Below the pieces are notes generated by a model. That model saw nothing but the letters and a program-made list of their open reading frames with translations, ran no database searches and was not told the DNA's origin. A program made the translations under genes and the position numbers. This document shows positions 1,757 to 56,727 of a stretch of DNA of 56,727 bases, one piece after another. Source of the DNA: an uncultured Candidatus Saccharibacteria bacterium (GTDB taxonomy: Bacteria; Patescibacteriota; Minisyncoccia; Minisyncoccales; CAZKCU01); NCBI GenBank assembly GCA_964551595.1, contig CAZKCU010000003.1:16030-72756 (forward strand). The letters are read 5' to 3'. Within the stretch, counting starts at the first letter, position 1. Each line of letters opens with the position of its first letter.

Positions 1757-2731
1757 ATGAGTCATATCTCCGTATTACAAAAAGAAGTGCTTAGATATCT
1801 TGACCCTAAGCCCAATCAGAATTTTATTGATTGTACAATTGGTGAAGCCGGCCATACTTTAGCAATTTGTTCTCCCTTGGCGAAGAAATCTTCAGCTGAG
1901 CTGAACATTTTAGAAAAAAACAGACCGAAGGGAAAAGTACTTGGTATTGATTGGAGTTCTGAACTAATAAAAAGTTTAGAGTTTAAAGTTAAAAGTTTAA
2001 AGTTAAGTCGGAGACTCATCCTTGTTTGTGATAATTTTGCCAATTTAAAAGAGATTGTTGAAAGAGAAAAATTTAGGCCGATTCAAGGAATTCTATTTGA
2101 CTTAGGAATGTCAAGCTGGCATTTAGAGGAGTCAGGCAGAGGATTCAGTTTTTTGAGAAAAGAACCGCTGGATATGAGATACAATTCTCAAAATCCTTTA
2201 ACGGCAGAAAAAATAGTGAATTATCGGTCAGAATCAGAGATAGAAAAAATTCTAAGAGAATACGGAGAAGAGCGTTTTGCCGGGAAAATTGCCAGGGAAA
2301 TTATTAAGGAGAGAAAAGCAAAGCCAATCAAAAACACATCTCAGTTGATAGAAGTTTTAAAAAGAGCAATTCCTTCCAGATATCAGCATCGGAAAATCCC
2401 CCGAAGGAAAGCCTCCGGCTTCCTACGGGGCAGGCATTTTGCCACCCGAACTTTTCAGGCTTTGAGAATTACTGTTAACGATGAACTAAATAATTTGAGA
2501 AAAGCCTTACATCAAACCTTAGAGATTTTAGAGCCAGGGGGAAGAATAGTAATAATCTCTTTCCATTCTTTAGAAGACAGAATCGTCAAAAATTTCTTCA
2601 GAAACCGGGCCAAAGAAGAATCGCTTAAAATTTTAACTAAAAAACCAATCACACCACGCGAGGAAGAAATTAAAATTAATCCTCGCTCAAGGTCGGCAAA
2701 GTTAAGAGCAGCCAGAAAAGTAAGTTCGTAG
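1757..2731 (+). CDS. rsmH: 16S rRNA m4C1402 methyltransferase RsmH (with two short in-frame insertions)
   Basis: HISVL...DCTIGEAGH, FDLGMSSWHL, LDMR, ATRTFQALRI, ISFHSLEDRIVK, NPRSRSAKLR. ATG 1757 is preferred over the track start. Confidence 0.96.
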   Translation: MSHISVLQKEVLRYLDPKPNQNFIDCTIGEAGHTLAICSPLAKKSSAELNILEKNRPKGKVLGIDWSSELIKSLEFKVKSLKLSRRLILVCDNFANLKEIVEREKFRPIQGILFDLGMSSWHLEESGRGFSFLRKEPLDMRYNSQNPLTAEKIVNYRSESEIEKILREYGEERFAGKIAREIIKERKAKPIKNTSQLIEVLKRAIPSRYQHRKIPRRKASGFLRGRHFATRTFQALRITVNDELNNLRKALHQTLEILEPGGRIVIISFHSLEDRIVKNFFRNRAKEESLKILTKKPITPREEEIKINPRSRSAKLRAARKVSS

Positions 2732-2744
2732 AATATCTACTCAA

Positions 2745-3089
2745 ATGAATATTTTAGCCCTTAATCCATCTGTTCCCGTTATTCGGCCTTTAGCTTTAAA
2801 AAGAAAATTTAGCCTGAAAGCTTTCTGGATTTTGAGTTTTATTTCAATAATATCGCTTTTAATATTTTATATTTTTCAGGTAAATAGCATGATTAGAGAG
2901 ACTTATCTGATTCAAAATTATCAAAGAAAAATAAAGGAGCTGTCTCAGGAAAATAAAACTCTGGAGATTAATTTTTTTCAGGCAAATTCCTTATCTACCA
3001 TTGAGAGTTTAGTAAAAAATCTAAATTTTGAAAAAGTAGAACGAATTCATTATATTCAGGTTTTGGAAAGCCAGGTTGTTGCAAAGTAG
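2745..3089 (+). CDS. FtsL-like bitopic membrane/coiled-coil protein
   Basis: Single TM followed by a coiled coil; position between rsmH and ftsI. Confidence 0.65.
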   Translation: MNILALNPSVPVIRPLALKRKFSLKAFWILSFISIISLLIFYIFQVNSMIRETYLIQNYQRKIKELSQENKTLEINFFQANSLSTIESLVKNLNFEKVERIHYIQVLESQVVAK

Positions 3090-3130
3090 ATAGCAGGAAA
3101 TTTGATAACCGTCAGCTATCGTAAATTAAA

Positions 3131-4828
3131 ATGAAAAGGGGGAGGATAAATCTAATTTTAATTTTAATAATATTATTTGGAGCAGCTATTATAGGGAGGC
3201 TTTTTTTTATTCAGATACTTAATTATGAATATTGGAAGGCTTTGGCTCAAGGTCAGCAAAAATTTTTTGCCCAAATTAAAGGAGAGAGAGGAGAAATTTT
3301 TTTACAGAATAAAGAAGGAAATTTATATACCTTAGCCTCAAATAAAAATTGGGAATTAGCTTATATTTCTCCAGAAGAAATTACTACCAAAGGGCAAGAT
3401 TCAATAGAAATAGCTAAAGCCCTGAGCCAGACATTGAATTTAGATGAAGACTTAATTTTAGAAAAAATTAAAAAAGCAGACAGTCTCTATGAGCTAATAA
3501 AAAGTAAATTAACTCAGGAAGAGATAGAACTTTTAAAAAAATTAAATTTACCAGGAGTTTATTTAGGCTCAGAGACCTTAAGATATTATCCTCAAGAAAC
3601 TCTAGCTTCTCATTTAGTTGGATTTTTAGGGGGAGATAACGTTGGACAATACGGGGTAGAAGGGTATTACAATGACATTCTTAAGGGGTCAGAAGGATTT
3701 CAAGAGGGAGAAAAGGGTGCGCAAGGGTATTTAGTCAAGACGACCTCAGGTGTTGTTAAAGGAGGTGCTGACCTTATTTTAACCTTTGATTACAATATCC
3801 AATTTATGACTGAAAAGCTATTAAGAGAAGCTAAAGAAAATTTAGATATCGAGAGGGGTCAAATTATAGTCGGAGACCCTAATTCAGGAAAAATTTTGGC
3901 TCTGGCTAATTTTCCGAATTTTAATCCCAATCAGTATTGGAAAGAATCGAATTTAGAAATTTTCCAAAATGGGGCAAGCCAGAAGCTTTTTGAACCGGGT
4001 TCGGTTTTTAAACCAATCACTATGGCAGCAGCTTTGAATGAAGAGAAAATAACTCCTCAGACTACCTATATTGACCCGGGAATAATAGAAATCGGAGGTT
4101 GGCCTATTTATAATTACGACCAAAGGGTTTATTCAGGCAAGATAACTATGACCGAGGTTTTGGAAAAATCAATTAATACCGGGGCAGTATTTGCTGAGAG
4201 GCAAATTGCTCACCAGACTTTCTTAGATTATATTGAAAAATTCGGGTTTTTTGAGCCAACCGGAATTGGCTTACAAGGGGAGGTCTCTTCTACGAATTCA
4301 AATTTAAAAAAAGGCTATGAAGTAAACTTTGCTACAGCTTCTTTTGGGCAAGGTATTGAAATGACTCCAATACAATTATTCAGAGCAATTTGTGCCATTG
4401 CCAATGGAGGGAAATTAATTAAACCTTATGTCTTAGAAAATCCTGGCCCTAATTTAGATGAAATAAAAGGAAAGCAGATAATTTCGCAAAAAACAGCCAC
4501 CCAATTAACAGCAATGTTGGTTTCAGTGGTAGAGAATGGTTTTGCCAAGCGAGCTAAGATTCCCGGCTATTATATTGCTGGTAAAACCGGAACTGCCCAG
4601 ATAGCTTTTTCAGCTTTAGGAATTGATAAATCGGGTTATTCTGAAAAAACTATTCAAACTTTTGCTGGATTTGCTCCGGCTTTTAATCCCCGGTTTTTGA
4701 TTCTGATAAAATTAGATAATCCAAAAACCAAAACAGCTGAATATTCGGCTACCCCCATATTTCGAGAACTTGCTAAATATATTATAGATTACTATCAGAT
4801 TCCCCCTGATTATGATTATGAAGAATAA
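3131..4828 (+). CDS. ftsI: Class B penicillin-binding protein (FtsI/PBP2-like)
   Basis: N-terminal TM, RGEI dimerisation-domain start, EPGSVFK (SxxK), KSIN (SxN), GKTGT (KTG). Confidence 0.9.
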   Translation: MKRGRINLILILIILFGAAIIGRLFFIQILNYEYWKALAQGQQKFFAQIKGERGEIFLQNKEGNLYTLASNKNWELAYISPEEITTKGQDSIEIAKALSQTLNLDEDLILEKIKKADSLYELIKSKLTQEEIELLKKLNLPGVYLGSETLRYYPQETLASHLVGFLGGDNVGQYGVEGYYNDILKGSEGFQEGEKGAQGYLVKTTSGVVKGGADLILTFDYNIQFMTEKLLREAKENLDIERGQIIVGDPNSGKILALANFPNFNPNQYWKESNLEIFQNGASQKLFEPGSVFKPITMAAALNEEKITPQTTYIDPGIIEIGGWPIYNYDQRVYSGKITMTEVLEKSINTGAVFAERQIAHQTFLDYIEKFGFFEPTGIGLQGEVSSTNSNLKKGYEVNFATASFGQGIEMTPIQLFRAICAIANGGKLIKPYVLENPGPNLDEIKGKQIISQKTATQLTAMLVSVVENGFAKRAKIPGYYIAGKTGTAQIAFSALGIDKSGYSEKTIQTFAGFAPAFNPRFLILIKLDNPKTKTAEYSATPIFRELAKYIIDYYQIPPDYDYEE

Positions 4829-21392: not shown

Positions 21393-21449
21393 ATAAATAA
21401 TCAAAATTTAGGCCGAAGTTGAGGGAAATTTAAAAACTATATAAAGATT

Positions 21450-45582: not shown

Positions 45583-45650
45583 TTGACAGAGGTCTTTGCC
45601 CCCTTTATTATTAAGATAGATATAGTCGGACAATGTAGGTAAAGCGACGC
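45583..45650 (+). promoter_or_regulatory. Recombinase promoter with a 28-bp dif-like site in the leader
   Basis: TTGACA(45583)-17-TATTAT(45606), then TAGTCGGACAA-TGTAGG-TAAAGCGACGC (45623-45650). Confidence 0.7.
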
Positions 45651-45694
45651 TTTATAGATAGCCAAAAGAGACTCTTAACCAGTCCCCTATAAAT

Positions 45695-46651
45695 ATGAAA
45701 AAATCTAATATACCAATAATAAAACATATCCCCGACTTTTTAGATTATTGTGAAGTTGAAAAAGGTTTAGCAGATAGAACTCAAGAAAATTATCAGCACT
45801 ATCTCCAAAAGCTCGTCTCCTGGCTGAAAAAGACTAAAAAAGAGACTCTCCTACCGCATGAGCTTACGGCTGAGGATATCTGGGCTTACCGCCTATATTT
45901 ATCTCGTTATACAGACGAAAAGGGCCGTCCCTTGAAGAAAGTCACTCAGAACTACTATTTAATCGCTCTAAGAGCCCTCCTGGGTTATTTTACTGCCAAG
46001 GACGTGATTTCGCTCCCTGCTGATAAAATAGCCCTTCCAAAGGACGCCAGAGCCGAAAAAACGGTAAAATTCCTTAATTTAGACCAGGTTGAGAAGCTTT
46101 TACTGGCTCCCAATACCAGTACCCCAATCGGCTTAAGGGACAGGGCTATTTTGGAATCTCTTTTTTCAACCGGTCTTAGAATAGCCGAACTGGTAGCCCT
46201 AAACCGAGAACAGTTTACCAATATAAAAGATAAAAAGGATCTGGAGCTTGGCATTATTGGTAAAGGGGCTCATCCCCGGACAGTTTACTTTTCTGAAAGA
46301 GCTCTTTCTTGGGTTAAGAAATATCTGGATACCCGCAAGGATAAAGAAAAACCATTATTTATACACTATAGAGCCAGACAAAATGCCGAGCCTCGTCTCA
46401 CGGCCCGCTCAATAGAAAGAATCGTCAAAAAATATGCCATCTTAGCTGGCGTTCCTATCTTCACCACTCCCCACACCCTTCGCCACAGCATGGCAACTGA
46501 TCTTTTAACTCAAGGTGTTGATTTAAGAACCATTCAGGAATTTTTAGGTCACAGAAATATTGTCACAACTCAAATATATACCCACGTAACAAACAAACGC
46601 CTCCGCGACATCCACCGCCAGTTCCACAGCGGCAAAAATTTAAAAGAATAA
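45695..46651 (+). CDS. Xer-family tyrosine recombinase
   Basis: SAM-like N-domain; LRDRAILESLFSTGLRIAEL (R), GKG (K), TPHTLRHSMAT (HxxR), LGH, TTQIYTHV (Y); no IntI-specific insertion. Confidence 0.95.
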   Translation: MKKSNIPIIKHIPDFLDYCEVEKGLADRTQENYQHYLQKLVSWLKKTKKETLLPHELTAEDIWAYRLYLSRYTDEKGRPLKKVTQNYYLIALRALLGYFTAKDVISLPADKIALPKDARAEKTVKFLNLDQVEKLLLAPNTSTPIGLRDRAILESLFSTGLRIAELVALNREQFTNIKDKKDLELGIIGKGAHPRTVYFSERALSWVKKYLDTRKDKEKPLFIHYRARQNAEPRLTARSIERIVKKYAILAGVPIFTTPHTLRHSMATDLLTQGVDLRTIQEFLGHRNIVTTQIYTHVTNKRLRDIHRQFHSGKNLKE

Positions 46652-46657
46652 AAAGAG

Positions 46658-46681
46658 GCCTATCGATTTCTTGATAGGCCC
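46658..46681. terminator. Terminator between convergent genes
   Basis: ggcctatc-gatttctt-gataggcc. Confidence 0.7.
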
Positions 46682-46706
46682 CATATACCTAGAGCTTTAT
46701 ACTCCA

Positions 46707-47216
46707 TTACTTCTTCAAGCCCTTTAAAAGCTCTTTCTTCTCAATTACCTCACTAATAAGGTGAATCTCCCATCCATAAAGAGTGTTAGGAAACTGTAGG
46801 CTGGCGAATTCTATCGCATCTTTCTTGTTAACAAAATAAAAATAAGAAAGAAATGCTCGAGGGTTTAAACCGACCCGGCCATCGGCCACAATCTCCCAGT
46901 TTCCTTCTGGTTGAAAAGAAAGAATCCCAAGGGTCATTAGAATATGATGGAATCTTTCTTTTCGGTCTGAAAAGCGACTTTCCGAGAAGAAATCTTGATA
47001 ATGCGGCCAATTTACTGTTGGCTTGCCGGATTTTGATATTTTAATGAACTCCTTGACCTTTCCTTCAAAATCCTGTACCCATAATTCCTTAGCACATTCC
47101 TCACACGTCAGACCGTCTTTAGATATTTTCACGGTCATGCCCAGATAAGTAAAAGAAATATCTTCATACTTTCCGGGGCTATTCTGCTTGCATCTATAAC
47201 ACAATCTCTTTTCCAT
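46707..47216 (-). CDS. Hypothetical protein with an N-terminal CxxC...CxxC zinc finger
   Basis: LCYRCK...TCEECAK; GGGGG RBS. Confidence 0.7.
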   Translation of the reverse strand: MEKRLCYRCKQNSPGKYEDISFTYLGMTVKISKDGLTCEECAKELWVQDFEGKVKEFIKISKSGKPTVNWPHYQDFFSESRFSDRKERFHHILMTLGILSFQPEGNWEIVADGRVGLNPRAFLSYFYFVNKKDAIEFASLQFPNTLYGWEIHLISEVIEKKELLKGLKK

Positions 47217-47256
47217 CTTTTCCCCCTTATCTTTATATTAAGAACTTATAAATAAA

Positions 47257-47288
47257 ATATCGCATAAATATAATTAAATGTCGCACAA
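47257..47288 (+). other. Two tandem recombinase half-site-like boxes
   Basis: ATATCGCATAA (47257) and ATGTCGCACAA (47278). Confidence 0.55.
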
Positions 47289-47319
47289 TATTATCTACTT
47301 TTTTGCCTATGTTTTATGT

Positions 47320-47799
47320 TTAAGGTAGGGTCTCACATGCTAGGCCATCATTATCTCTATCAAGATCATGTATGTCATTATTTATTCCTCCACAATATTC
47401 AAAAGCCTCTTGAGCTTCTGCATGGGTTCTAAAATCGGAACAATTATATGCATTATAGGAACAAATTATTGTTTTAACTGGCGATGAAGGTGCCGTAGAT
47501 GGCGGCTCTAGTTCGGGTTCATATAAGGGTTCTGGTTCTGAGATGGGTTCGGGTTCAGGTTCGAGTTCAAGTTGGGATTCGGCTTCTGGGATTTGATTTT
47601 CGGTTCTTTGTGATTCCTCTTGTTCTGTTGTTTTGAGCTCCTCGTCAGACTCATCCTCTCTTAACGGCTCAGAGACCGAAGCTGGAAGTTTAGGAATAAT
47701 TTCTTCTTGAGTTGTGTTGTCACCAGATAAAGCAATAATAACAAAAACAATAATAAATCCTCCAAATCCAATAAGTGCTAATTTTAAAATTTTCTTCAT
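47320..47799 (-). CDS. Membrane-anchored protein with Pro/Glu linker and Excalibur Ca-binding domain
   Basis: N-terminal TM, EPEPEP linker, YNCSDF...AQ...[14 protein letters not shown]. Confidence 0.85.
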
Positions 47800-47893
47800 A
47801 ATTTTATCTTATAGCTCTTTAGAAAATTGGCGGTCTACCCTCAATCTGACCCCATTTTAAAAGAATGTCAAGGTAATAAAAAACCGCCGGAAT

Positions 47894-47921
47894 ACGACGA
47901 ACAGTACGCCTTGTGCGACAT
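47894..47921 (-). other. 28-bp dif-like site (degenerate)
   Basis: Minus strand: ATGTCGCACAA-GGCGTA-CTGTTCGTCGT. Confidence 0.55.
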
Positions 47922-47944
47922 TTTCCTCAACTTCGGGCTAAATT

Positions 47945-48586
47945 TTAATTCCATAAATCTTTTTCTATGACCGTCCAGTCTTTCCGCCTCTTTAAAGATT
48001 TCTCTACTTTTTTAAAGTGCCCTCTTTTTTCAATAAATCCATCTCCGCTTATTTCTTTTCCTTTTTTAGTAAAGAAATCTTTGTTTGTATATTTTCTTTT
48101 AAGAATAAATTGAGCCCACTCTTCTATTGGTCTTTTTAATTCATATTGGGCCCGATAAGTGGAAAACATACCTCCAATTCCACTTTTCTCCAATAAATCA
48201 GCATCAAAGACAATTTTAGATTCTAATGTTTCTTGCGCTCCTCTTTCTTTATGAAGTTTTACGCAATAAGCAATTTGTTCAATTTCTTTCTTTGTATAAC
48301 CCATTTTAGATAAGTCTCGTTTCGTTATTCTAGCACCTACTTCTGCATGTTTTTTATAATCTCTAGCCTCAGTAACTCCGATATCATGAAGAATAATCGC
48401 TGGAATTAAAACAGAATAATCAACGTCCTTAATTGTTTCAGCAATAACTAATCCCCTATATAAATCCCTTATTATATGTTCCCAATTATGCTGAGGTTTG
48501 TTTGCTTTTAAATATTTCTTCTTTGCGTAGTTATAAACCCTCTTAATCCTTTTGTCTTTTTTAATAAAATAGTTAATTTTTTTCAT
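47945..48586 (-). CDS. HD-domain phosphohydrolase
   Basis: HNWEHIIR, IILHDIG, HAEVGA, VFDADLLE; ATG 48586 lies 7 nt after the -10 box. Confidence 0.88.
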   Translation of the reverse strand: MKKINYFIKKDKRIKRVYNYAKKKYLKANKPQHNWEHIIRDLYRGLVIAETIKDVDYSVLIPAIILHDIGVTEARDYKKHAEVGARITKRDLSKMGYTKKEIEQIAYCVKLHKERGAQETLESKIVFDADLLEKSGIGGMFSTYRAQYELKRPIEEWAQFILKRKYTNKDFFTKKGKEISGDGFIEKRGHFKKVEKSLKRRKDWTVIEKDLWN

Positions 48587-48593
48587 ATTATTC

Positions 48594-48626
48594 ATTCTAA
48601 CAAAAAACTGCCTTCTTGGCGATTTT
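48594..48626 (-). promoter_or_regulatory. Portable hairpin-promoter, leaderless
   Basis: tcgcca-agaaggcagttttttgt-tagaat-gaataat-ATG. Confidence 0.7.
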
Positions 48627-48675
48627 TTTTGAATTTAGCTCCGGGGACTAGACTATATTAAAATCTGTTTGAGAC

Positions 48676-49251
48676 TTATTGTTCTTCATGTTTTACTTCT
48701 TCTGGAAACAATAACTGAAATGGATAACCTACGTAATTTCTTTTTATTTGTCCACAACCAACGCTTTTAAGAAAATCAATCATTTCTTCTGTAATCTTTT
48801 TTGGGTCCACCTTTTCTTCTTTCCCAATATACTCAATTTCTACAAAATCTCCAAGCCCTTTTACTGAATCTACGGCAATCTCATAATCCTTATATGTCCA
48901 AACTTTTCTTAATTTGTCTACTTTAACAAGAGGCTTAAAATTAAGAACATCTAATATCTTCCTTAATTGAGTTAAATCTTCTATTTTGGTTTCGTATTCA
49001 TCACAATACTGACTTCTACCATTTTCATCATAATGCCAGTTTTTATAATTTATAGAATATTTACCGCCAGAATCTCTTAACCTCAACCACTTCTTAACTG
49101 GACGAACATCAATAAAATTACGATGAATTGGAGAAAAATATTCATCTATTTGCTGTCTTTCTTTTTGAAAGTCAGCATTCTTTTCTAAAAATTCTATTAA
49201 GGGTTTACCATTTTCAATAGTAACTTGAATTTCTATTTCAATGTCTTTCAT
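48676..49251 (-). CDS. CYTH-domain protein (class IV adenylate cyclase-like)
   Basis: EIEIQV, QIDEYF, LRLR, EYETKI, KLRKVW, GDFVEIE. Confidence 0.88.
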   Translation of the reverse strand: MKDIEIEIQVTIENGKPLIEFLEKNADFQKERQQIDEYFSPIHRNFIDVRPVKKWLRLRDSGGKYSINYKNWHYDENGRSQYCDEYETKIEDLTQLRKILDVLNFKPLVKVDKLRKVWTYKDYEIAVDSVKGLGDFVEIEYIGKEEKVDPKKITEEMIDFLKSVGCGQIKRNYVGYPFQLLFPEEVKHEEQ

Positions 49252-49257
49252 GTTTTC

Positions 49258-49290
49258 ATCTTACCAAAAAACCGCCTACTTGGCGATTTT
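49258..49290 (-). promoter_or_regulatory. Portable hairpin-promoter, leaderless
   Basis: tcgcca-agtaggcggttttttgg-taagat-gaaaac-ATG. Confidence 0.7.
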
Positions 49291-49331
49291 ATATTTATAT
49301 CCCCTACTCTTTTGTACCCTTTGTCTATTTT

Positions 49332-49388
49332 TATACCTAGTCTGATTATTTTGCGACCCTGAGTCATCAATCCCATATTGTCTGACTA
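49332..49388 (-). other. Composite dif-like site with an adjacent accessory box
   Basis: Plus strand: TTTTGCGACCC-t-GAGTCATCAAT-CCCATA-TTGTCTGACTA, same layout as 54946-54985. Confidence 0.55.
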
Positions 49389-49411
49389 TCCATAACTTAT
49401 TTCGCCCTGTC

Positions 49412-50368
49412 TTATTTCAAGTATTTCTCAATATTTTGTAGATGTTCCTCGTAGGTCTTGGCAAGATGAGTTATTCCCTCGCTATCGTGCAGATAATACA
49501 AATATTCGCTGTCTTCGGAGTTTATCACGGCGTCAATCGCCGCCAATCCCGGATTGCAGATCGGAGACGGCGGGCGACCTTTGTGGATATAGGTATTATA
49601 AGGAGAATCGATTTTATAATCATCCGGCTTTATAACTGGCCACCAATTTCCCGGATCTCCTAAAGCGTACTGTATAGTTGCATCTATTTGGAATGGCATG
49701 TCTTTCAGCCATCTGTTCCAGATTACCCCGGCGATTAAGGGCATCTCCTCTTCATTTGCGACTTCTCTCTGAACTAAAGATGCCAAAACTATCAGAGTAT
49801 CGTTTTTTATGTTTTTTTCTGCAGCTTCTTTGAATAAATCTGTCGTTTTCTCATTAAATTGGTTTTTCATTCTTTTTGCAACATCCGCACCTGTAAAATC
49901 TAAATTTAAAAGGTAAGTGTTGGGAAAGAGATAACCTTCGTTTGCTTCAACAAGAAATTCTCCTTTTGCAAGATTACTCCAGTTCAGTTCTTTTTGCAGT
50001 TTTTCTGCGATTTCTGTCGCCCGCAGCCCTTCGGGTATAACCAGCCATTTTTGATATGCATGATTCACAAGTGTATCCGCCAACTGCCAAGCATCCATTG
50101 CTTTGGAAGCCATATATCCGCCCGGCTCTATTTTCCCTTCCCACCCTTTTCTTTTTAATACAAACTTAAATGCCCATTCGCTTCTTATATATCCTTGCTC
50201 TTTTAATTTGGGAATAAGTTCTTCTTCGGTTGTGTCAAGATTGATAACAATTCTCTCCATTTCTAATTCTCTTTCCGGTGCCGAAAACAAAAAATAATAT
50301 ATTCCAATGGGAATTCCTATCAGTAATACTATTGCACCTACTATTACGATTTTCTTATTTCTACTCAT
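49412..50368 (-). CDS. mltG: Endolytic transglycosylase MltG family protein
   Basis: N-terminal TM, IPEG, EGYLFPNTY, LASLVQRE, LQIDAT-like FQIDATIQY, SPYNTY..GRPPSPICNPG. Confidence 0.9.
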   Translation of the reverse strand: MSRNKKIVIVGAIVLLIGIPIGIYYFLFSAPERELEMERIVINLDTTEEELIPKLKEQGYIRSEWAFKFVLKRKGWEGKIEPGGYMASKAMDAWQLADTLVNHAYQKWLVIPEGLRATEIAEKLQKELNWSNLAKGEFLVEANEGYLFPNTYLLNLDFTGADVAKRMKNQFNEKTTDLFKEAAEKNIKNDTLIVLASLVQREVANEEEMPLIAGVIWNRWLKDMPFQIDATIQYALGDPGNWWPVIKPDDYKIDSPYNTYIHKGRPPSPICNPGLAAIDAVINSEDSEYLYYLHDSEGITHLAKTYEEHLQNIEKYLK

Positions 50369-50486
50369 AGTTTCTTAATAAAACGGCACTTTTTGTTGGC
50401 ATATAATTATTCTCGATATACTGTCTGATAATATACCAAAACCATCTTTTGAGAAATCGATCGAAATCAGCTCTCTTAACAATAAT

Positions 50487-50663
50487 CTATTTACTTAAAA
50501 TCTCAAAAGCTTGATAGACTAAAAATGCTGGCCAGACCAAAGCTTTTAAAAAACCAAGAACCCCCATCCAAAATGTTTCAGAATGACTGATAAAATAGAC
50601 GGCTGCGCCGATAAGTCCCAGGCCGTAAACCGCGCTGGCCCCGCCTTTATGAATGTTGCACAT
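50487..50663 (-). CDS. Small membrane protein (58 aa), not in the ORF track
   Basis: MCNIHKGGASAVYGLGLIGAAVYFISHSETFWMGVLGFLKALVWPAFLVYQAFEILSK. Confidence 0.75.
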   Translation of the reverse strand: MCNIHKGGASAVYGLGLIGAAVYFISHSETFWMGVLGFLKALVWPAFLVYQAFEILSK

Positions 50664-50745
50664 AGTTTTTTATTTCGAGCGAAGCGAGAAAAAATGTTCT
50701 GCCTCGCAGGTTCTTATTAATTATTTTTACACTTCGACCTAAATT

Positions 50746-51273
50746 TTATTTTATAAGACCCTTTTCTTTAGCTAATAATATTGCCGCAATGGTTGTCATA
50801 CATTTAATTTTCCCTTGCTTTATTAATTTCAACACGCTACCAATTTTTAAAAATTTAATCTTTTTTTTACGCTCCGCCAAATCATTATTGATTTTCTTTT
50901 TTTTCAATTTCTTAACATCTCTAACAAGGAATATCGTGCATTTATCAGTGACTCTTGTAGGGTTCGAAAATGCATTACCTATATTTTTAAAATCGTCTCC
51001 TATAAAACCAGCTTCTTCTTTTAATTCTCTTTTAGCTGCTTCTTCTGCGCTTTCTCTTTTATCAATTCTTCCCCCCGGTAAATTAATAATTTTCTTATTT
51101 ACCGCAGGACGAAATTGTTCTATAAATATTAATTCTTCTTTTTTTGTTAAAGCAACTACTACTGTCCCTCTTGGGCAAAAAGTTATCACAGAATACTGGA
51201 TTCCTTTTGGTTTTTTATAAAGGTTATGTTTTAGCACTAAATATGTATCTTCTATCTCCCATTCTTTGCTCAT
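50746..51273 (-). CDS. NUDIX hydrolase (ADP-ribose pyrophosphatase-like)
   Basis: LPGGRIDKRESAEEAAKRELKEEAG Nudix box; EQFRPAV. Confidence 0.92.
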   Translation of the reverse strand: MSKEWEIEDTYLVLKHNLYKKPKGIQYSVITFCPRGTVVVALTKKEELIFIEQFRPAVNKKIINLPGGRIDKRESAEEAAKRELKEEAGFIGDDFKNIGNAFSNPTRVTDKCTIFLVRDVKKLKKKKINNDLAERKKKIKFLKIGSVLKLIKQGKIKCMTTIAAILLAKEKGLIK

Positions 51274-51317
51274 AATCTTAAAAATTTTTTCCAGCTTCGG
51301 CCAAAATTTTGATTATT

Positions 51318-51779
51318 TTATACTAAAATTCCGCCGGCGTAGAAAAACGTATAAATTTCTTTATCTCTCTTGAGAATCTTTTCCGCGCCAGCTAACTCAT
51401 CAATAGAACCTTTAAAATCCGGCTGGCAAATATATTTATAATCATCTTTCTCCTATTCTACTTTTTTCCAAATTCTTACATTTTGCCAATTTGCTATAAG
51501 TGCTTTCCTTAAAATTTTATCCATTTCCTCTTCGGACATCCCTTTATAGTTTCCATAATACGACATTGACCAAACAGCTTTCTCCTGATAATAAACAGCT
51601 TCCAGTCCCATAAAAATTCCCTTTCCATTATAATAAACATCCCGATAAAACCAATCCCCTTCTCTATATTCAAGTTGATCTGAACCCTTAAAAACCGGCT
51701 TTACTTTTCCACCAGCTCCGGCATAAGTTTTCGTCCTCGCATTTAATAAAAATTGTAAGAGTTTCTCTTTATCTACCAT
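51318..51779 (-). pseudogene. DUF5680-like protein interrupted by an in-frame TAG at 51455-51453
   Basis: FLLNARTKTYAG...YRDVY.G...F.G.E; the frame continues 44 codons after TAG to YTFFYAGGILV. Confidence 0.75.
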
Positions 51780-51824
51780 TTTTTATTTTTATTATCCCCT
51801 ACTCTTTTATATTTGGGCTAAATT

Positions 51825-52106
51825 TTAATTATTTCCGAAACCAATCTTTTCTTGCCCTCCAGTTTCTCTTTTTTCGAGAAGCTGAGTTTCAAGTGGACCA
51901 AATTTCTTTTCGTATTCATTAAGAGATTTACCCAGAAGTAAATAAATTCGCTTTGCATGTTTCGGTGATACTTGAAACTGACGACCTTGATTCCCTGAAA
52001 TCAATAGGAAATCAAAAACTTCTTCCCCAAAGCGTATATTAACGTTAGAGAGCGCGTAAAGAATCGGATCAAGATTAATTTTAATTTGTTTTTGTTCTTC
52101 TGCCAT
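51825..52106 (-). CDS. DUF3467-like hypothetical protein
   Basis: SPKHAKRI...LNEYEKKFG pattern. Confidence 0.6.
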   Translation of the reverse strand: MAEEQKQIKINLDPILYALSNVNIRFGEEVFDFLLISGNQGRQFQVSPKHAKRIYLLLGKSLNEYEKKFGPLETQLLEKRETGGQEKIGFGNN

Positions 52107-52173
52107 ATTTTCAAAAATTTAATTTTAATTAATTCTTCGACTTTTTTTAAATTCCCTTTAACTTCGGGCTAAA

Positions 52174-52215
52174 TTATTCTTCAGTTGAAACTCTGGCTAA
52201 AATTAAAGCTTTCAT
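52174..52215 (-). pseudogene. Serine recombinase N-terminal stub MKALILARVSTEE
   Basis: Matches the resolvase N-terminal YARVST motif; stop coincides with the shared junction motif. Confidence 0.6.
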
Positions 52216-52242
52216 AAATTGTATAATTATTCCACAGTAACA

Positions 52243-52701
52243 CTAAAAGAAGATACGCAAAGTGCCCTGTATCCATTTTATAGCTCGTTTCAATATGCTC
52301 ACTTTCTCATTCATCATTCCCATACTGGAATTACATTGTCTACAAACCCATCCCCTTATCTCGCCAGTTTCGGAGTTGTGGTCTAATACAACATCGTTTT
52401 TATATTGCCTGATTATCGTTCTATCACAAACGGGGCAATGAAAAGGCTTACCTATAGGTGGTCGTGGGTGTGTTTTTTCATACTCAATCCTTATTTTGAT
52501 GGGTATGGGTTTTCTCCACTTGCGGCATTCCTTACACTCACCTCTTCTTGAGACTTTGCCTCTAATAGTTCTTTGATTCTTTTCAAACTCAAAAATGCTT
52601 TTCCGTTGTTGGCAAGTGCGGCATATTTTTGTTTCGTTGAAACAGGAATCACAAAACTTTCCATGTGTCGCCTTATTACGATTACATTCAATACATTTCA
52701 T
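52243..52701 (-). CDS. Hpy99I-like beta-beta-alpha-Me (endonuclease VII type) restriction endonuclease
   Basis: KICRTC...FEKNQ...CKECRK, FHCPVC, LDHNSETGEIRGWVCRQCNSSMG. Confidence 0.75.
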   Translation of the reverse strand: MKCIECNRNKATHGKFCDSCFNETKICRTCQQRKSIFEFEKNQRTIRGKVSRRGECKECRKWRKPIPIKIRIEYEKTHPRPPIGKPFHCPVCDRTIIRQYKNDVVLDHNSETGEIRGWVCRQCNSSMGMMNEKVSILKRAIKWIQGTLRIFF

Positions 52702-53522
52702 AAAAGATTCTTAATTCTTTTTTGTGCTATCTTATAATACTTATTAGATAATTCACTACCTATATATTTTCTATTGTTGAGAATAGCCATTTTTGCTGTC
52801 GTGCCACTACCTATGAAGGGGTCGTATACAATATCACCTTTATTACTCCATGAGATTATATGGTCTTGTGCCAACTTTTCTGGGAATATGGCGGGATGTT
52901 CATAAGCAATTTTATCACTTGCGGAGTGCCCCTTTCCTATAAGATATTTCCACACATTTGTTCGCCTGCCGTATTTAGAATATCCAGCCCTACTTTGTTT
53001 CAATAGTGAGCCATCATACAGCCGTTTTGTGCCGTTATCGCCACCTCGCTCCTCTTTATTCTCCCTGTCTTTTATAAGATTTATTGTCTTTGGTGTATCT
53101 TTGCTTAATATGAACATATACTCAAATGTCTGCCAGTATGTTTTATTATTTCCAACTGCTCCTCGTGGTGTTTTAAGGTATATCATTGTGTCAAAAAGAT
53201 TAAAACCTATCTGTTTGAAATATAGAGCGTGTCTGAAAGACGTTCCTGTTTCGTTTCCCTTAACTGTTTGATCTCCGACAACCCACACAACTACACCCCC
53301 CCTTTTAGTAACACGATATAGCTCTTGTGCTATCAATTCAAATTCACTAAAAGTGTCGCCACCATATTTTCGTATATTATCATACGGAGGCGAGGTTATT
53401 GTTAAATCAACAAAATTGTTAGGCATTTTTGCCATAGTGTATAGGCAATTTTCATTATAGATTTTGTTTAATTTAAGACCCCTCTCCTTTATTGGACTTT
53501 TGTTTTTATTTTGTCTTTGCAT
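52698..53522 (-). CDS. N4-cytosine/N6-adenine DNA methyltransferase (beta class)
   Basis: TSPPY, HPAIFP, VYDPFIGSGTT; overlaps the endonuclease start. Confidence 0.92.
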   Translation of the reverse strand: MQRQNKNKSPIKERGLKLNKIYNENCLYTMAKMPNNFVDLTITSPPYDNIRKYGGDTFSEFELIAQELYRVTKRGGVVVWVVGDQTVKGNETGTSFRHALYFKQIGFNLFDTMIYLKTPRGAVGNNKTYWQTFEYMFILSKDTPKTINLIKDRENKEERGGDNGTKRLYDGSLLKQSRAGYSKYGRRTNVWKYLIGKGHSASDKIAYEHPAIFPEKLAQDHIISWSNKGDIVYDPFIGSGTTAKMAILNNRKYIGSELSNKYYKIAQKRIKNLL

Positions 53523-53631
53523 ATTCTAGAAATCTGTTTAATTCCTTTTTATCAATTCTAAACTCTTTGCCTATTTTGTAGGCTTTCAATACTAATTCCC
53601 TTACAAGGTAGAATTTTTTTTGGTCATTCAT
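53506..53631 (-). pseudogene. HTH_17 excisionase-like gene with the central helices deleted (41 aa)
   Basis: MNDQKKFYLVREL//VLKAYKIGKEFRIDKKELNRFLEY. Confidence 0.6.
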
Positions 53632-53646
53632 GATTGTAAGTATTCA

Positions 53647-54039
53647 TTATTTAATTTCTTCTTCAATTTCTTCGTCAATTTTAGCTAAAGATTTTTTCAT
53701 TTCTTTTATAATTAAAAAAAAGAGCATTTTCTTGTTAAACTCCCTTTCTTCCTTGCCTGTTATTATTTTTTCAAAGGATTGAAAAACTTCCTTAGGAAAA
53801 TAAAATTGAAGATCGCTTATCATATCTATGTCATAACTGTTCTTTGTCATCCCGTCTAATATTTCTTTTTTGGCCTTATTAAACACTTGCTCTAATTTAT
53901 CTCGCCTCAATCTTAAGTGTTGAATTTTTATTTCTTTTTTCCATTTTCGGTAGTTTAAAAAATGTGTAATAAATTGAGCAACAGTTACGATGAGGCCACC
54001 AATTATAACACCAATTAAACCGATTATAGCTTCTGACAT
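53647..54039 (-). CDS. Hypothetical protein with an N-terminal TM
   Basis: IIGLIGVIIGGLIVTVAQFI followed by a charged helical domain. Confidence 0.7.
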   Translation of the reverse strand: MSEAIIGLIGVIIGGLIVTVAQFITHFLNYRKWKKEIKIQHLRLRRDKLEQVFNKAKKEILDGMTKNSYDIDMISDLQFYFPKEVFQSFEKIITGKEEREFNKKMLFFLIIKEMKKSLAKIDEEIEEEIK

Positions 54040-54126
54040 AGTTTTAATAATTTAATTTATGTTTCAACACTGCTTTCATTATACTTTACAATTATTTACA
54101 GGACAATGGAGCAAATATAAGTTTAA

Positions 54127-54224
54127 ATGTCGCACAAGATGCGTAGTGCGACGTAAAAAACCACTTTCTTGAGAGAGCGGCGGCCGAAATCGGGACTACT
54201 GCCCTAGTTAGACAATATTAGAGC
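54127..54224 (+). repeat. Cassette trailer copy A, with a symmetric 28-bp site
   Basis: ATGTCGCACAA-GATGCG-TAGTGCGACGT, terminator-like hairpin, ccctagttagacaatattagagc. Confidence 0.75.
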
Positions 54225-54238
54225 TTGTTTAGTGCGGG

Positions 54239-54622
54239 TTATTTATTTTTTGCTTTGTATTTTGCAACTAGAAAACCAATCTGTTGCCCGACGGCTAACG
54301 ATAATAAGAGTATGGTAATTTTTTTATTGCTCCCAATAATGCCCTCGATTATATAAGAAATTATGGCAAAAATTAATAAAAAAATAAAAAGGGCGTTTCT
54401 TTTTTGTCTATTGGCAAATTTATCGCCAATATATTGTCCAATGTTCAATACAAAGAAAAACATACTAATATTTTTTTCTTTTCCAGTGATACTTTCAAGT
54501 ATATAAAAAAATATAGTAAAAATTAATAAAAAAATCGAAAGAAAGTTTTTTCTTGTTACAATATATATTGATTTTTGATACCACTTAGTCATATAGTTGT
54601 TTACTTTTATAATTTTATTCAA
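54239..54622 (-). CDS. Membrane protein with two internal ~49-aa repeats, start uncertain
   Basis: IFLLIFTIFFYILESITG...IGQYIG versus IFLLIFAIISYIIEGIIG...VGQQIG. Confidence 0.6.
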   Translation of the reverse strand: MNKIIKVNNYMTKWYQKSIYIVTRKNFLSIFLLIFTIFFYILESITGKEKNISMFFFVLNIGQYIGDKFANRQKRNALFIFLLIFAIISYIIEGIIGSNKKITILLLSLAVGQQIGFLVAKYKAKNK

Positions 54623-54928
54623 AAAAACCTACCTGCCTAATAAAATCAACCAGCTTTGAAATATAACCATAGGCTAATTACTATATATATCTAGCAATAA
54701 GAGGCCAAACAAAACACAAAATCGCAAGTATTCTTAAAATCCATTTTTCTGAATTTTTTGTCGCTTTTGTGCAAAATATAAAAAAACAACTCCTACAATC
54801 CAAGAACCAAAAACTGCTATAACCATAAATTAGTTCAATATTTAATCTTATGAATTTGACCTTTCTTCTCTAATCCTACCAAAAAACCGTCTAAGTAAAT
54901 AGGCGGAATTCCCGGATCCGCGGGTAAG

Positions 54929-55085
54929 ATTCTAACTAATACAAATTATGCGACATTGACTCCTCATTCATAGATTGTGAGACAAGATAAGCTTTTGACT
55001 CCTCATTGATGCGTAGTGCGACGTAAAAACCGCCTTCTTGAGAAAGCGGCTGAACTGATCTCCCCTAGCTGGACGATGTTAGAAC
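54929..55085 (+). repeat. Cluster of three 28-bp dif-like sites plus cassette trailer copy B
   Basis: Sites at 54929-54956, 54958-54985 and 54997-55024, then aaaaaccgcc hairpin and ccctagctggacgatgttagaac. Confidence 0.75.
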
Positions 55086-55101
55086 CTGTTTTTAAAAGAT
55101 G

Positions 55102-55128
55102 AGAGAGCGTTCGTTAGGAACGCTCTCT
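55102..55128. terminator. Hairpin terminator
   Basis: agagagcgttc-gttag-gaacgctctct. Confidence 0.7.
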
Positions 55129-55149
55129 TGAGAAAATCCTCTTGGCTGA

Positions 55150-56055
55150 TTAATGTTCGAATATCCTTATACTAAGCTTTCCTCCGTGCTCTGTCGCTTC
55201 TTTTATTGAGTGCAACCAAAATACTTCCTGAAACGATTTAGATTCTTTTTCGGCTTCCCGCATATAATCTACTATTTGCTTTGTGTATTCTCGTAGACTG
55301 ATGGCGAAAATTCTGGATAGTTCATCGTTAACAAATCCTTCCAAAAATGAGTCTGTTCCTCTCAGAAATCTTTTCCTAGATTGTCTTTGGCGAGTTAGAA
55401 CTTCTGCCATATCTCTAAGTATACAAAGTATATCGCTAACCATTCCAGTTAAGACTTTTGATACCTCATGAGCTTTTTCGAGGTTTTGGTTGACCTTTTT
55501 CCACTTAATACTTGAAATCGAATCATATTGGGGAATTAAATCAATTCTTACGGCTTCCTCGCCGTTATACATATAATTCTGCAACTTACTATCTCCAGGA
55601 ATAACTCCCTTTAAGCAAAAGAGGTAAACTGTCTTGCCCAGGGCTTTCAATTCTTTATGCGGTATTACTACCCGGAAAAAGGAAATCCCTTCATCAGCTA
55701 AGATAATTTCTTTATAATCTCTCCCGTTTATTCTATCGATTATTACTATGTCTCCTACGTTGTCATTGTTCACGCCCATTGCTACAGGGTTCTCTACGGG
55801 TAATCCTAGGCTCTGGCAGTACTTTAAGAATCCAAAAGATTCGGGAGGGTAAAATTTAAGCAAATATCTTCCGAATCTATATGTGTGTTCTGTTAGTATT
55901 TCGGGCTCAAGGCTCGAAAGATAACCTAAAATTACCGCCAAATCTATACCTTTAGGTGAATAAAAGTCTTTTATTCCTATCTTTTTCAAATCCCCCTTAG
56001 CCTTCATTCTGTGATACTGACCTACGAATTCTGTGCCTATTATTTTATTTTTCAA
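55150..56055 (-). CDS. Hypothetical protein, probable atypical kinase fold (Kdo/WaaP/RIO-like)
   Basis: YLLKFY, GLPVENP, GVIPGDSKLQNYM, VRIDL; TTGACA-17-TATAAT promoter and AGGAGG RBS. Confidence 0.55.
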   Translation of the reverse strand: MKNKIIGTEFVGQYHRMKAKGDLKKIGIKDFYSPKGIDLAVILGYLSSLEPEILTEHTYRFGRYLLKFYPPESFGFLKYCQSLGLPVENPVAMGVNNDNVGDIVIIDRINGRDYKEIILADEGISFFRVVIPHKELKALGKTVYLFCLKGVIPGDSKLQNYMYNGEEAVRIDLIPQYDSISSIKWKKVNQNLEKAHEVSKVLTGMVSDILCILRDMAEVLTRQRQSRKRFLRGTDSFLEGFVNDELSRIFAISLREYTKQIVDYMREAEKESKSFQEVFWLHSIKEATEHGGKLSIRIFEH

Positions 56056-56222
56056 GGTGCCCTCCCTCCTTATTATTGACTTATGATTTATTTTTTATGA
56101 TTTATTTTTTAGTTAATTTAGAATTCTTAATTATACAATTCATATTTAATTTTGTCAATAAAAAGCGGCATAGTGGCTTAAAATATTTTGCTCCAGAGGT
56201 AAGGCTCGAACCAATAAAAATC

Positions 56223-56312
56223 TTGACTCCTCATTGATGCGTAGTGCGACGTAAAAAACCGCCCAAATAAATAGGCAGAATCTCGGCTCCCTTGGCTGGA
56301 CGATGTTAGAAC
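56223..56312 (+). repeat. Cassette trailer copy C, with a 28-bp site identical to 54997-55024
   Basis: GACTCCTCATT-GATGCG-TAGTGCGACGT, hairpin, ccttggctggacgatgttagaac. Confidence 0.8.
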
Positions 56313-56317
56313 TTTTT

Positions 56318-56674
56318 TTATTTAGATTTCATAATCTTACTAACTTTAACCAATATAGCGCCTTTGGCGGGCAGTCCTCTATTTTCTTTTAATTTCTTTA
56401 CATATTGAATCCATTTCCCTTTTTTAAAATATTTACACCTACCAAGAAATTGGTATCCTTCCCACTTCTTATCCCAAACTATTAATGCAACATTATTGTT
56501 TTTAAGAATGTTTTCTACTGTAATCTTCATAAAACTATCGGTTACCAATATCTCATCGTTGCCCATAACCTTACAACAAGCGACAGCGATAGCATAAGGT
56601 TTACCATCTCTAACAGTGGCGAGGGTCATAGGGTTTTCTTCAACTATCTTTTTAATCTTTGGGGTAATTTTCAT
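56318..56674 (-). CDS. Pyridoxamine 5'-phosphate oxidase-like FMN-binding protein
   Basis: LATV..GKPY, D.FM..T.ENILKNNNVALIVW, GYQFLG. Confidence 0.85.
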   Translation of the reverse strand: MKITPKIKKIVEENPMTLATVRDGKPYAIAVACCKVMGNDEILVTDSFMKITVENILKNNNVALIVWDKKWEGYQFLGRCKYFKKGKWIQYVKKLKENRGLPAKGAILVKVSKIMKSK

Positions 56675-56680
56675 ATTTCC

Positions 56681-56714
56681 ATTCTACCAAAAAATCGCCT
56701 TCTTGGCGATTTTC
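56681..56714 (-). promoter_or_regulatory. Portable hairpin-promoter, leaderless
   Basis: aaaa-tcgcca-agaaggcgattttttgg-tagaat-ggaaat-ATG. Confidence 0.72.
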
Positions 56715-56727
56715 TGAAGCTAACTCC

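Follow-up and report, generated by a model that had tools for sequence, protein, structure and literature searches.

A candidate island of Xer-site-flanked gene modules beside xer at the replication terminus of a Parcubacterium

The locus

The window (the whole stretch of DNA analysed, 56,727 nt of contig CAZKCU010000003.1) is AT-rich, with a GC content of 34.6%, and comes from a Parcubacterium, a Nealsonbacteria- or Paceibacter-like member of the Candidate Phyla Radiation (CPR). Towards its right end it carries xer, a gene for a Xer-family tyrosine recombinase of 318 amino acids (45695..46651, + strand), followed by an island of ~10.5 kb that runs from the xer stop codon to purM. The island holds 15 genes, all on the minus strand and convergent with xer, and between them stands a series of dif-like sites of 11-6-11 form, in which two 11-bp arms enclose a 6-bp spacer. 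A second contig of the same organism (L083) prolongs the window and shows the block ending at purM/purL, and the portion of the genome inspected is the 56.7-kb window plus 2.7 kb. The comparison set for xer loci consisted of 80 species representatives. The nearest public relatives of the window Xer, at 88-92% identity, are from Candidatus Paceibacter normanii and Nealsonbacteria metagenome-assembled genomes (MAGs).

The recombinase, its dif and the replication terminus

The xer product matches Phage_integrase in Pfam (1.9e-37) together with a SAM-like N-terminal domain, the catalytic motifs GLR, GKG, HTLRH and GH..IYTH are legible in its translation, and its top match in the PDB is E. coli XerD (1a0p). 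The NCBIfam models for XerD and XerC score 213 and 210 bits, both under their equivalog cut-offs, the XerS model gives a partial match of 102 bits, and the integron-integrase model TIGR02249 reaches 88.7 bits against a cut-off of 265, over residues 234-303 only. No insertion separates the GKG and HTLRH motifs, and the extra attC-binding domain of the IntI type was not encountered. By its sequence, the enzyme belongs to the Xer family and is not an IntI, and the Pfam, NCBIfam and PDB results thus bear out the preliminary description, which had set it apart from integron integrases. Earlier work named a 'Cand' subgroup for Xer-related recombinases found in candidate phyla (PMC8138268). The gene order murG-gltX-g153-xer is kept in more than 30 species, which indicates that xer is vertically inherited.

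A promoter with an 11/12 consensus match, TTGACA-17-TATTAT, precedes the gene (45583..45611, +), and the site TAGTCGGACAA-TGTAGG-TAAAGCGACGC (45623..45650, +) lies between this promoter and the start codon, i.e. within the xer leader. Orthologous sites of the form ATGTCG(C/T)A(C/A)AA-TGTAGG-T(A/T)AAGCGAC(G/A)T are found 50-200 bp 5′ of xer in ~35 related species. Gene orientation and GC skew both flip at xer in 46 of the 51 species with enough flanking DNA, the share of + strand coding going from 95% upstream to 20% downstream and the GC skew from +0.088 to -0.092, and the window itself is alike; xer and dif therefore sit at the replication terminus, and the island lies on the end of the other replichore, just past xer. 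The site at 45623 has the inverted arms that Xer/dif dimer resolution requires, terminus location included, and is probably the chromosomal dif rather than a cassette boundary. It had earlier been counted as the first site of the array, a place that its conservation in ~35 species and the skew flip do not support.

Dif-like sites in the island

All 11-6-11 sites of the preliminary description were recovered in place and letter for letter, each between open reading frames. Nearest to xer, at the proximal edge of the island, are two half-sites in direct orientation, ATATCGCATAA and ATGTCGCACAA-TATTAT (47257..47288, +; starts 47257 and 47278), and this stretch has a 30-nt direct repeat (family D17) in common with 54111-54140. 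In relatives, ATGTCGCACAA-TATTAA or tandem copies of it follow the xer stop codon at a distance of 10-300 bp; the half-sites, earlier listed with the sites of the array, belong to a conserved architecture flanking xer. Further on lie ATGTCGCACAA-GGCGTA-CTGTTCGTCGT (47894..47921, -), with an exact left arm and an arm symmetry of 7/11, and TAGTCAGACAA-TATGGG-ATTGATGACTC (49361..49388, -), which is conserved with the gene for MltG in L237, a contig considered below. Two degenerate sites with a GGTATA spacer are new to the list, namely TAATCAGACTA-GGTATA-AAAATAGACAA (49321..49348, -) and the hybrid AAGATGGTTTT-GGTATA-TTATCAGACAG (50421..50448, -).

The remaining sites begin at 54.1 kb. The near-palindromic site ATGTCGCACAA-GATGCG-TAGTGCGACGT (54127..54154; arms 9/11) reads ACGTCGCACTA-CGCATC-TTGTGCGACAT on the other strand, which places it in the CGCATC class, and its counterpart is present in L093/L204 and L220. 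Three sites then form a tandem cluster (54929..55024), all on the minus strand: ATGTCGCATAA-TTTGTA-TTAGTTAGAAT (54929..54956), TTGTCTCACAA-TCTATG-AATGAGGAGTC (54958..54985) and ACGTCGCACTA-CGCATC-AATGAGGAGTC (54997..55024). The last of these is directly repeated at 56225..56252 (-), and the two CGCATC sites, which flank the gene g301, lie within identical 35-nt direct repeats (family D1) 1228 bp apart. The sites had been described as occurring in both orientations, which does not hold for the well-formed two-arm sites from 54.1 kb onwards: with 54127 read on the minus strand, these share one orientation and are therefore direct repeats.

Within the 56.7-kb window the arm motif is limited to 47.2-56.3 kb, and all 6 copies of the 7-mer GTCGCAC fall at 47.28-56.25 kb, with 0 in 1-45 kb. 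Half-sites with at most 2 mismatches to ATGTCGCACAA number 15 against 6.3 in Markov simulations (12 of the 15 in the last 10 kb), and full two-arm sites number 5 distinct (6 matches) against 0.025 expected, a ~200-fold excess that is partly circular, the model having been built from the same sites. The GGTATA counts by themselves are not significant. A 15-mer scan of genome contigs was dominated by chance matches in high-GC genomes, with 5 CPR among the matches listed, and a search for the sites in IMG/VR did not find them.

The good arm follows the consensus A(T/C)GTCGCA(C/T)(A/T)A across the island sites. The second arm varies: it resembles a Xer arm where the site is near-palindromic, and is elsewhere either of a conserved AATGAGGAGTC type or degenerate. 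The first 19 nt of 54929-54956 are those of the dif of ~30 betaproteobacterial genomes, ATGTCGCATAA-TTTGTA-TTATGT[CA]AA[AG]T, and 18 of its 28 positions are identical to E. coli dif. Since the betaproteobacterial dif sites share ATGTCGCATAA-TTTGTA-TT, the good arm is taken as a canonical Xer arm of the XerC type, and it also matches the arms of the dif beside xer. Spacer classes that recur across genomes are CGCATC, TCTATG, GGTATA and TTTGTA. Tandem clusters like that of the window (three sites) comprise ~7 sites in L005, which holds a larger homologue of the window cluster, and 2-4 sites in metagenome contigs, with gaps of 1-12 nt and a number of units that differs between strains.

Association of the arm motif with xer in related species

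Among the xer loci of the comparison set, ~60 of the 75 exact copies of TGTCGCACAA lie less than 2 kb from xer. Arms reach a density of 26 per 10 kb over the 200 bp that precede the gene and of 22 per 10 kb over the 300 bp that follow, falling to 2.4 per 10 kb within 2 kb, 0.73 further downstream and 0.15 further upstream. Scattering of the motif throughout the genome, which had been named as an observation that would refute a recombination site, is thus not what is found. Most of the half-sites near xer are without a conserved second arm. The strand polarity of the arms reverses at xer, which was weighed in considering a motif resembling FtsK-orienting polar sequences (KOPS) and a DNA-uptake sequence; both of these, and a genome-wide transcription-factor box, are unlikely for a motif that clusters less than 2 kb from xer and is nearly absent further upstream.

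In Staskawiczbacteria-type relatives, the arm motif TTGTGCGACAA also occurs inside coding sequence, at homologous positions of gltX (L032 9250, L036 8409, L037 8631, L041 9326) and of another upstream gene (L018 3383, L030 1375, L046 1596). It is directed towards xer throughout, with 27 '-' against 4 '+' copies upstream and 40 '+' against 4 '-' copies downstream.

Exchange of cassettes between genomes

Upstream of xer synteny is retained between species, whereas downstream it is gone: none of the 80 species representatives has anything there in common with the window, not even where the Xer identity is 92%. Array variants within the species were sought and none was found, all contigs of the species having the identical array. 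More distant contigs do share cassettes with the window, and the comparison of cassette order that had been proposed for related genomes turned up the same cassettes in other orders and contexts (L204, L206 and L237).

Over 1108 bp, the g301 module (window 56199-55093) shows 96% nucleotide identity to its counterpart in L204/L093, which has different neighbouring genes. The three-site cluster beside it accompanies g301 in those contigs and is 94% identical there, counted from its CGCATC spacer up to the outer edge of its final arm. PurL was used as the divergence baseline, purM having been discarded (30% identity, probably non-orthologous); on the same two contigs PurL is 53% identical at the amino acid and 66% at the nucleotide level, and against that value the 96% identity of the g301 module argues that it was horizontally transferred. 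A further g301 homologue (73% amino acid identity) lies among other genes in L206, in an array convergent on a xer whose product is 60% identical to that of the window. A 1218-bp contig, L232, carries one g301 homologue and has a 29-nt terminal redundancy over spacer and right arm, which is suggestive of a circle or of a site-flanked unit.

Five blocks are shared with L237 (L238 and L239 have the same arrangement), at 92-98% nucleotide identity and in one orientation, with their order changed. The window has PNPOx ... g93, DUF5680, Nudix+g58 and MltG, and L237 has MltG, PNPOx, g93, Nudix+g58 and DUF5680, with extra genes between. The MltG block (window 50437-49332) is 97.6% identical to L237 6-1111 at a different array position, the g58, Nudix, DUF5680 and g93 blocks are 92.7-97% identical in changed order, and PNPOx shows 92% nucleotide identity among different neighbours. 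In the strain pair L211/L218, flanks that are 97-98% identical enclose a segment of ~2 kb that has been swapped for unrelated genes, bounded by a CGCATC site and a palindromic GATAAG site, and L227 holds a cassette between CGCATC sites.

Many metagenome and MAG contigs end at or within sites or at xer, among them L231 (at position 32 of a 260-kb contig), L237 (which starts with CACAA), L221, L222 and L011 (which ends inside xer). Assemblies of CPR genomes apparently tend to break at the sites.

Positions of the crossovers

Tyrosine recombinases cut at arm/spacer junctions, and several of the breaks between genomes fall there. The MltG block stops in both the window and L237 directly after ...TAATCAGACTA-GGTATA. 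The hybrid at 50421-50448 is a three-way recombinant joint that combines the left half of the site following g58 in L237 with the right half of the one preceding MltG there (..CACAA-GGTATA-TTATCAGACAG); the shared sequence is just GGTATATTA (9 nt), and the flanks are otherwise unrelated. At the site ending at 55024, homology with L204 restarts exactly at the left-arm/spacer junction and runs as far as the outer edge of the cluster's final arm. The 75-bp direct repeats of L206 part exactly at the spacer/right-arm junction. To judge by their length in the aligned sequences, the stretches shared at such joints are too short for homologous recombination. The expectation that synteny would break at the sites thus holds for several junctions and fails for about half of those between the window and L237, which fall at a linker motif or a hairpin.

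L206 also has a gene for a 243-aa protein without a family match (2498-3441), set beside xer between 64-bp inverted repeats. These repeats start inside the spacer of two inverted sites with differing outer arms, and the unit may be invertible or transposed.

Other repeats at cassette junctions

The linker motif, TAA-AATTTAGCCCGAAGTTGAGGAAA-(N)-ATG (also written TAA-AATTTAGCCCGAAGTTGAGG-ATG), fills the space between a stop codon and the start codon that follows it. Its window copies are at 47944, 50745, 51308, 51824 and 52175 on the minus strand, with one more at 21405 (+), in the core part of the window; it is abundant in the islands of L003, L004, L005, L008, L133, L216 and L237, and it marks several cassette junctions. 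The nearly invariant palindrome AAAATCGCCAAGAAGGCGATTTTTT occurs at 48601-48626, 49265-49290 and 56689-56714, followed by GGTAGAAT and, 6-8 nt on, by ATG. This combination resembles a terminator joined to an extended -10 promoter, with hardly any leader before the start codon, and the palindrome is conserved over many CPR genomes, a conservation that a plain terminator would not require.

A conserved element of ~90 nt, GACCGAG..TT(R)TGAGACAGCCC..AAAAAGCC..CCCTTAAAAC..GGTTC(G/T)AGACCGACTAGGGGAG, is found in the islands at L083 2632-2720 (past the window end, upstream of PNPOx), L204 6939-7028 and 7731-7819, L133 2498-2586, and L005 12598-12689 and 20261-20351. Within it are a half-site-like TTGTGAGACA and a T-loop-like GGTTCGAnnCC, and it has no Rfam match. 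A box termed 'box1' (GGTTCTAACATCGTCCAGC.AGGGGAG), located after PNPOx, g301, g127 and CYTH, resembles the 3′ part of this element, and no consensus fold was obtained for the T-loop-like box1 and the ~90-nt element. A tRNA, tmRNA or other known RNA was rejected as the source of the repeats, with no ARAGORN prediction in the island or in 8 related loci and no Rfam hit above chance.

Genes and expression signals of the island

The gene content first read from the translations (HD, CYTH, YceG/MltG, Nudix, restriction-modification and PNPOx) was borne out by family searches. All genes are on the minus strand. Between xer and the first half-sites sits g169 (46707..47216), a CxxC zinc-ribbon protein without a Pfam match and with only a weak MqsA-like match. 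It is followed by a secreted protein with an Excalibur domain (47320..47799), an HD protein (47945-48595), a CYTH protein (48676-49251) and MltG/YceG (49412..50368; YceG 5e-74), all identified with Pfam. The genes g58, Nudix, DUF5680 and g93 (50487..52106), the assignments again from Pfam, are joined by the linker motif AATTTAGCCCGAAG. A type II restriction-modification (R-M) pair was recognized by family search and consists of an HNH/EndoVII restriction endonuclease-like gene (52243-52701) and an N4/N6 methyltransferase (52698-53522). The membrane protein g127 (54239..54622), without a family match, lies between the 54929-55024 cluster and site 54127, and the island includes two small membrane proteins in all. 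The ~240 bp at 54640-54880 (-), after the three-site cluster and a promoter-like GGTAGGAT box and before g127, are unannotated and may encode a small hydrophobic peptide.

The g301 cassette (55150..56224) comprises a promoter (56158-56130) with a 12/12 consensus match, the coding sequence and a terminator. Its product had been called kinase-like, in agreement with the protein-kinase-like fold predicted for it, and no more than 9 clusters in a set of 5.8 billion proteins make up its family. Relatives of g301 (40% identity) also occur in the DPANN-like archaeal contigs L207-L210, beside pyruvate kinase and near a XerA-like integrase. PNPOx (56318..56674) follows, identified by a family match.

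Many of the island genes have their own promoter and terminator, and in several a hairpin is followed by TTTTTTGGTAGAAT and then ATG. In the cassettes, Pfam and family searches found no genes for the replication, structure or transfer of phages or plasmids, and apart from xer neither the window nor the array contigs L204, L237 and L206 showed a recombinase or transposase gene. A prophage is ruled out by the lack of phage genes and by the failure to find the sites in IMG/VR. PADLOC, run with a defence island in mind, gave only the R-M pair and a weak Nudix match.

Explanation and rivals

The explanation considered moderately probable is that of a terminal Xer-site island of shuffled, horizontally exchanged modules, similar to dif modules or to integrative mobile elements exploiting Xer (IMEX) and integron-like in its consequences. 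Xer would bind the good arm and exchange strands in the 6-bp centre between sites of one spacer class. Direct repeats of one class would release the module between them as a small circle, of 1228 bp in the case of g301, and the circle would re-enter at any site of that class, whether in its own genome or in a different one, DNA uptake being one possible way. A second, repeat-based route would contribute too, since the linker motif and the hairpin also mark junctions. The comparisons show the sites and their tie to xer, the terminus position, the synteny loss at xer, the permuted and shared cassettes and the crossover points at arm/spacer junctions; from there on we infer that this Xer would be the catalyst, that the circles would exist and that spacer identity would govern the choice of partner.

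A number of observations weigh against this explanation. No 11-6-11 site with a good arm occurs between 49.4 and 54.1 kb, and MltG, a likely housekeeping gene, lies inside the island. The spacers TGTAGG, GGCGTA, TATGGG, TTTGTA and TCTATG are each unique in the window, without a same-spacer partner, and the metagenome set for CGCATC was gathered by searching for the CGCATC site and has an ascertainment bias. The commonest second arm, AATGAGGAGTC, has an arm symmetry of only 2-3/11 and is unlike the Xer arm, yet it is conserved across genomes and may need a further protein. A simple cassette model does not foresee the tandem clusters. Of the informative junctions between the window and L237, about half coincide with the linker motif or the ATCGCC..GGCGAT hairpin rather than with an 11-6-11 site, and some homology ends 7-36 nt off a site instead of in the spacer. 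In the complete genome CP179888.1, xer is ~30 kb from the start of the record, the origin not having been located.

The junctions at other repeats lend themselves to ordinary repeat-mediated recombination, by RecA or template switching, at the linker, the hairpin, the T-loop-like box and the Xer-like repeats, with Xer binding serving regulation, a dimer-resolution back-up or terminus organisation. Several window/L237 junctions do lie at the linker TAAAATAATCAAAATTTAGCCCGAAG or the ATCGCCAAGAAGGCGAT hairpin, and these motifs are nearly identical across cassettes and genomes. The half-sites near xer, most of them without a conserved second arm, fit a binding role, as do the tandem arms of the Staskawiczbacteria type, which overlap a -35 box 17 bp before TATAAT in the manner of an operator. 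Such recombination is nevertheless thought unlikely to be the explanation: the GGTATA joint, at 9 nt, is too short for RecA and falls exactly at the position of a tyrosine-recombinase cut, several breaks lie no more than 2 nt from arm/spacer junctions, discrete conserved spacer classes would be needless for a site that is only bound, and the sites form tandem units after terminators at no fixed distance from a promoter.

The remaining rivals accept the sites as recombination sites and differ over the enzyme or the time. Another enzyme might be used or also required (a second Xer paralogue, a partner for the AATGAGGAGTC arm or an element that targets Xer sites), the adjoining xer resolving dimers at its own dif only. 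In favour of this are the AATGAGGAGTC arm, conserved across genomes yet unlike the Xer arm, the two proteins that XerC/XerD systems use for two different arms, and the small part of the genome inspected, 56.7 kb plus 2.7 kb. Elements of the IS1202 group are reported to target Xer sites (bioRxiv 10.1101/2022.12.17.520857). The involvement of another enzyme is judged improbable in view of the match between the good arm and the arms of the dif beside xer, the concentration of the motif around xer in 80 species and the window and contigs L204, L237 and L206, in which no further recombinase or transposase gene appears. Very improbable is the view of the sites as scars, left by decayed IMEX-like phages or plasmids once integrated at terminal dif-like sites, with exchange now ended. 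One good and one degenerate arm are typical of IMEX attachment sites (CTX, TLC and the gonococcal island), the island is at the terminus, it contains an R-M pair and genes of unknown function, and many of the window sites have unique spacers. These features have to be set against the lack of phage or plasmid replication, structural and transfer genes, the failure to find the sites in IMG/VR, the xer gene that separates the array from dif, and the permuted blocks of 92-98% identity and identical 35-nt flanking repeats, which imply recent, repeated exchange of single genes.

Extending the explanation by exchange between Xer sites to Parcubacteria in general is tentative, and is put forward as possible rather than probable. 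In these bacteria a terminal Xer gene-capture platform may exist, in which a single housekeeping Xer, with its dif in the leader, would both resolve dimers and move promoter-bearing single-gene modules into and out of the island via double-strand dif-like sites, the 6-bp centres of which would define compatibility classes; the multi-spacer clusters would act as landing pads, and exchange would reach between distant CPR lineages. CPR genomes are tiny and have few recognisable mobile elements, and the gain and loss of accessory genes in them is poorly understood. If confirmed, these findings would identify the dif of a large part of the Parcubacteria beside xer, providing a terminus marker for MAGs, would account for recurrent assembly breaks and missing genes in CPR MAGs, where contigs end at sites, and would show that Xer machinery can sustain a cassette economy of the integron kind beyond the Proteobacteria, with one recombinase. 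If true, the island would be a functional analogue of the integron made from dimer-resolution machinery.

Comparison with known systems

A literature search aimed at CPR and metagenome Xer systems found neither Xer-site cassettes nor dif described for CPR, in keeping with the preliminary description, which knew of none. The closest parallels are the pdif modules of Acinetobacter, in which XerC/XerD sites flank genes (PMC6449649, PMC12907356, PMC11705084), together with IMEX arrays at dif and, as regards the outcome, sedentary chromosomal integrons. In Acinetobacter, chromosomal islands of Xer-site (dif) modules are also known (PMC12907356), and the central region decides Xer-site compatibility (PMC11705084). 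As in the Acinetobacter islands, 28-bp 11-6-11 sites bound modules of unrelated function, the same module occurs in various contexts (here g301 in L204/L206, the L227 cassette and the L211/L218 swap), sites cluster in linear multi-module islands, and the central region appears to set compatibility. Unlike the Acinetobacter systems, the island is in a CPR host, with a 'Cand'-type Xer about equidistant from XerC and XerD and seen in one copy, and unlike pdif arrays it is chromosomal, at the terminus and adjoining xer and dif. In pdif arrays the sites have distinct XerC and XerD arms and alternate in orientation, whereas here they are mostly direct, with both arms of one type or a Xer-type arm paired with AATGAGGAGTC, and the second arm is often a conserved sequence that is not Xer-like. 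Tandem clusters with differing spacers are a further difference, as is the lack of resistance genes and insertion sequence (IS) elements. With a single arm type and direct orientation, the island is thus not a typical pdif array.

Sedentary chromosomal integrons resemble the island in having a tyrosine recombinase gene beside a long row of small genes, all on one strand and with functions that are unrelated or not known, in array content that differs wholly between close relatives and in cassettes that are horizontally shared and reordered. The attC sites of integrons are imperfect palindromes of 55-140 bp, recombined as folded single strands; the elements of the island are, by inspection and not by an attC model, short 28-bp double-strand 11-6-11 sites. 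Integron cassettes are promoterless and share a common Pc by attI, whereas those of the island carry promoters and terminators, and the array is convergent with the recombinase gene rather than divergent. Since the IntI signature is lacking in the window Xer and the cassettes carry promoters, the island is not an integron. The characterization as integron-like without IntI stands for the reordered same-strand array and the lack of an IntI signature, and falls short where cassettes have their own promoters and some junctions lie at other repeats.

The XerS/difSL system of streptococci and lactococci has a single recombinase with dif adjoining its gene (Nolivos et al. 2010, as related in PMC8138268). 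The window is similar in that dif is immediately 5′ of the recombinase gene, the pair is at the terminus and a single Xer is presumed, and different in that its protein is nearer the XerC/XerD models and its dif has 28 bp with a 6-bp centre; we know of no cassette island beside xerS. Shufflon inversions (Rci/sfx), which take place between inverted sites with one conserved arm, differ as well, the five blocks shared with L237 having kept their orientation and one inverted-repeat case having been seen (L206).

IMEX arrays at dif, such as TLC-CTX-RS1 in Vibrio cholerae and the gonococcal genetic island, are like the present island in having no recombinase of their own, in their terminus location, in dif-like flanking sites with one good and one poor arm and in the possibility of tandem accretion. 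They differ from it in that its units are single genes without phage or plasmid functions, its spacer classes are many and its array begins after xer, ~1.6 kb from dif. As its units are single genes located outside dif, the island is not a classical IMEX.

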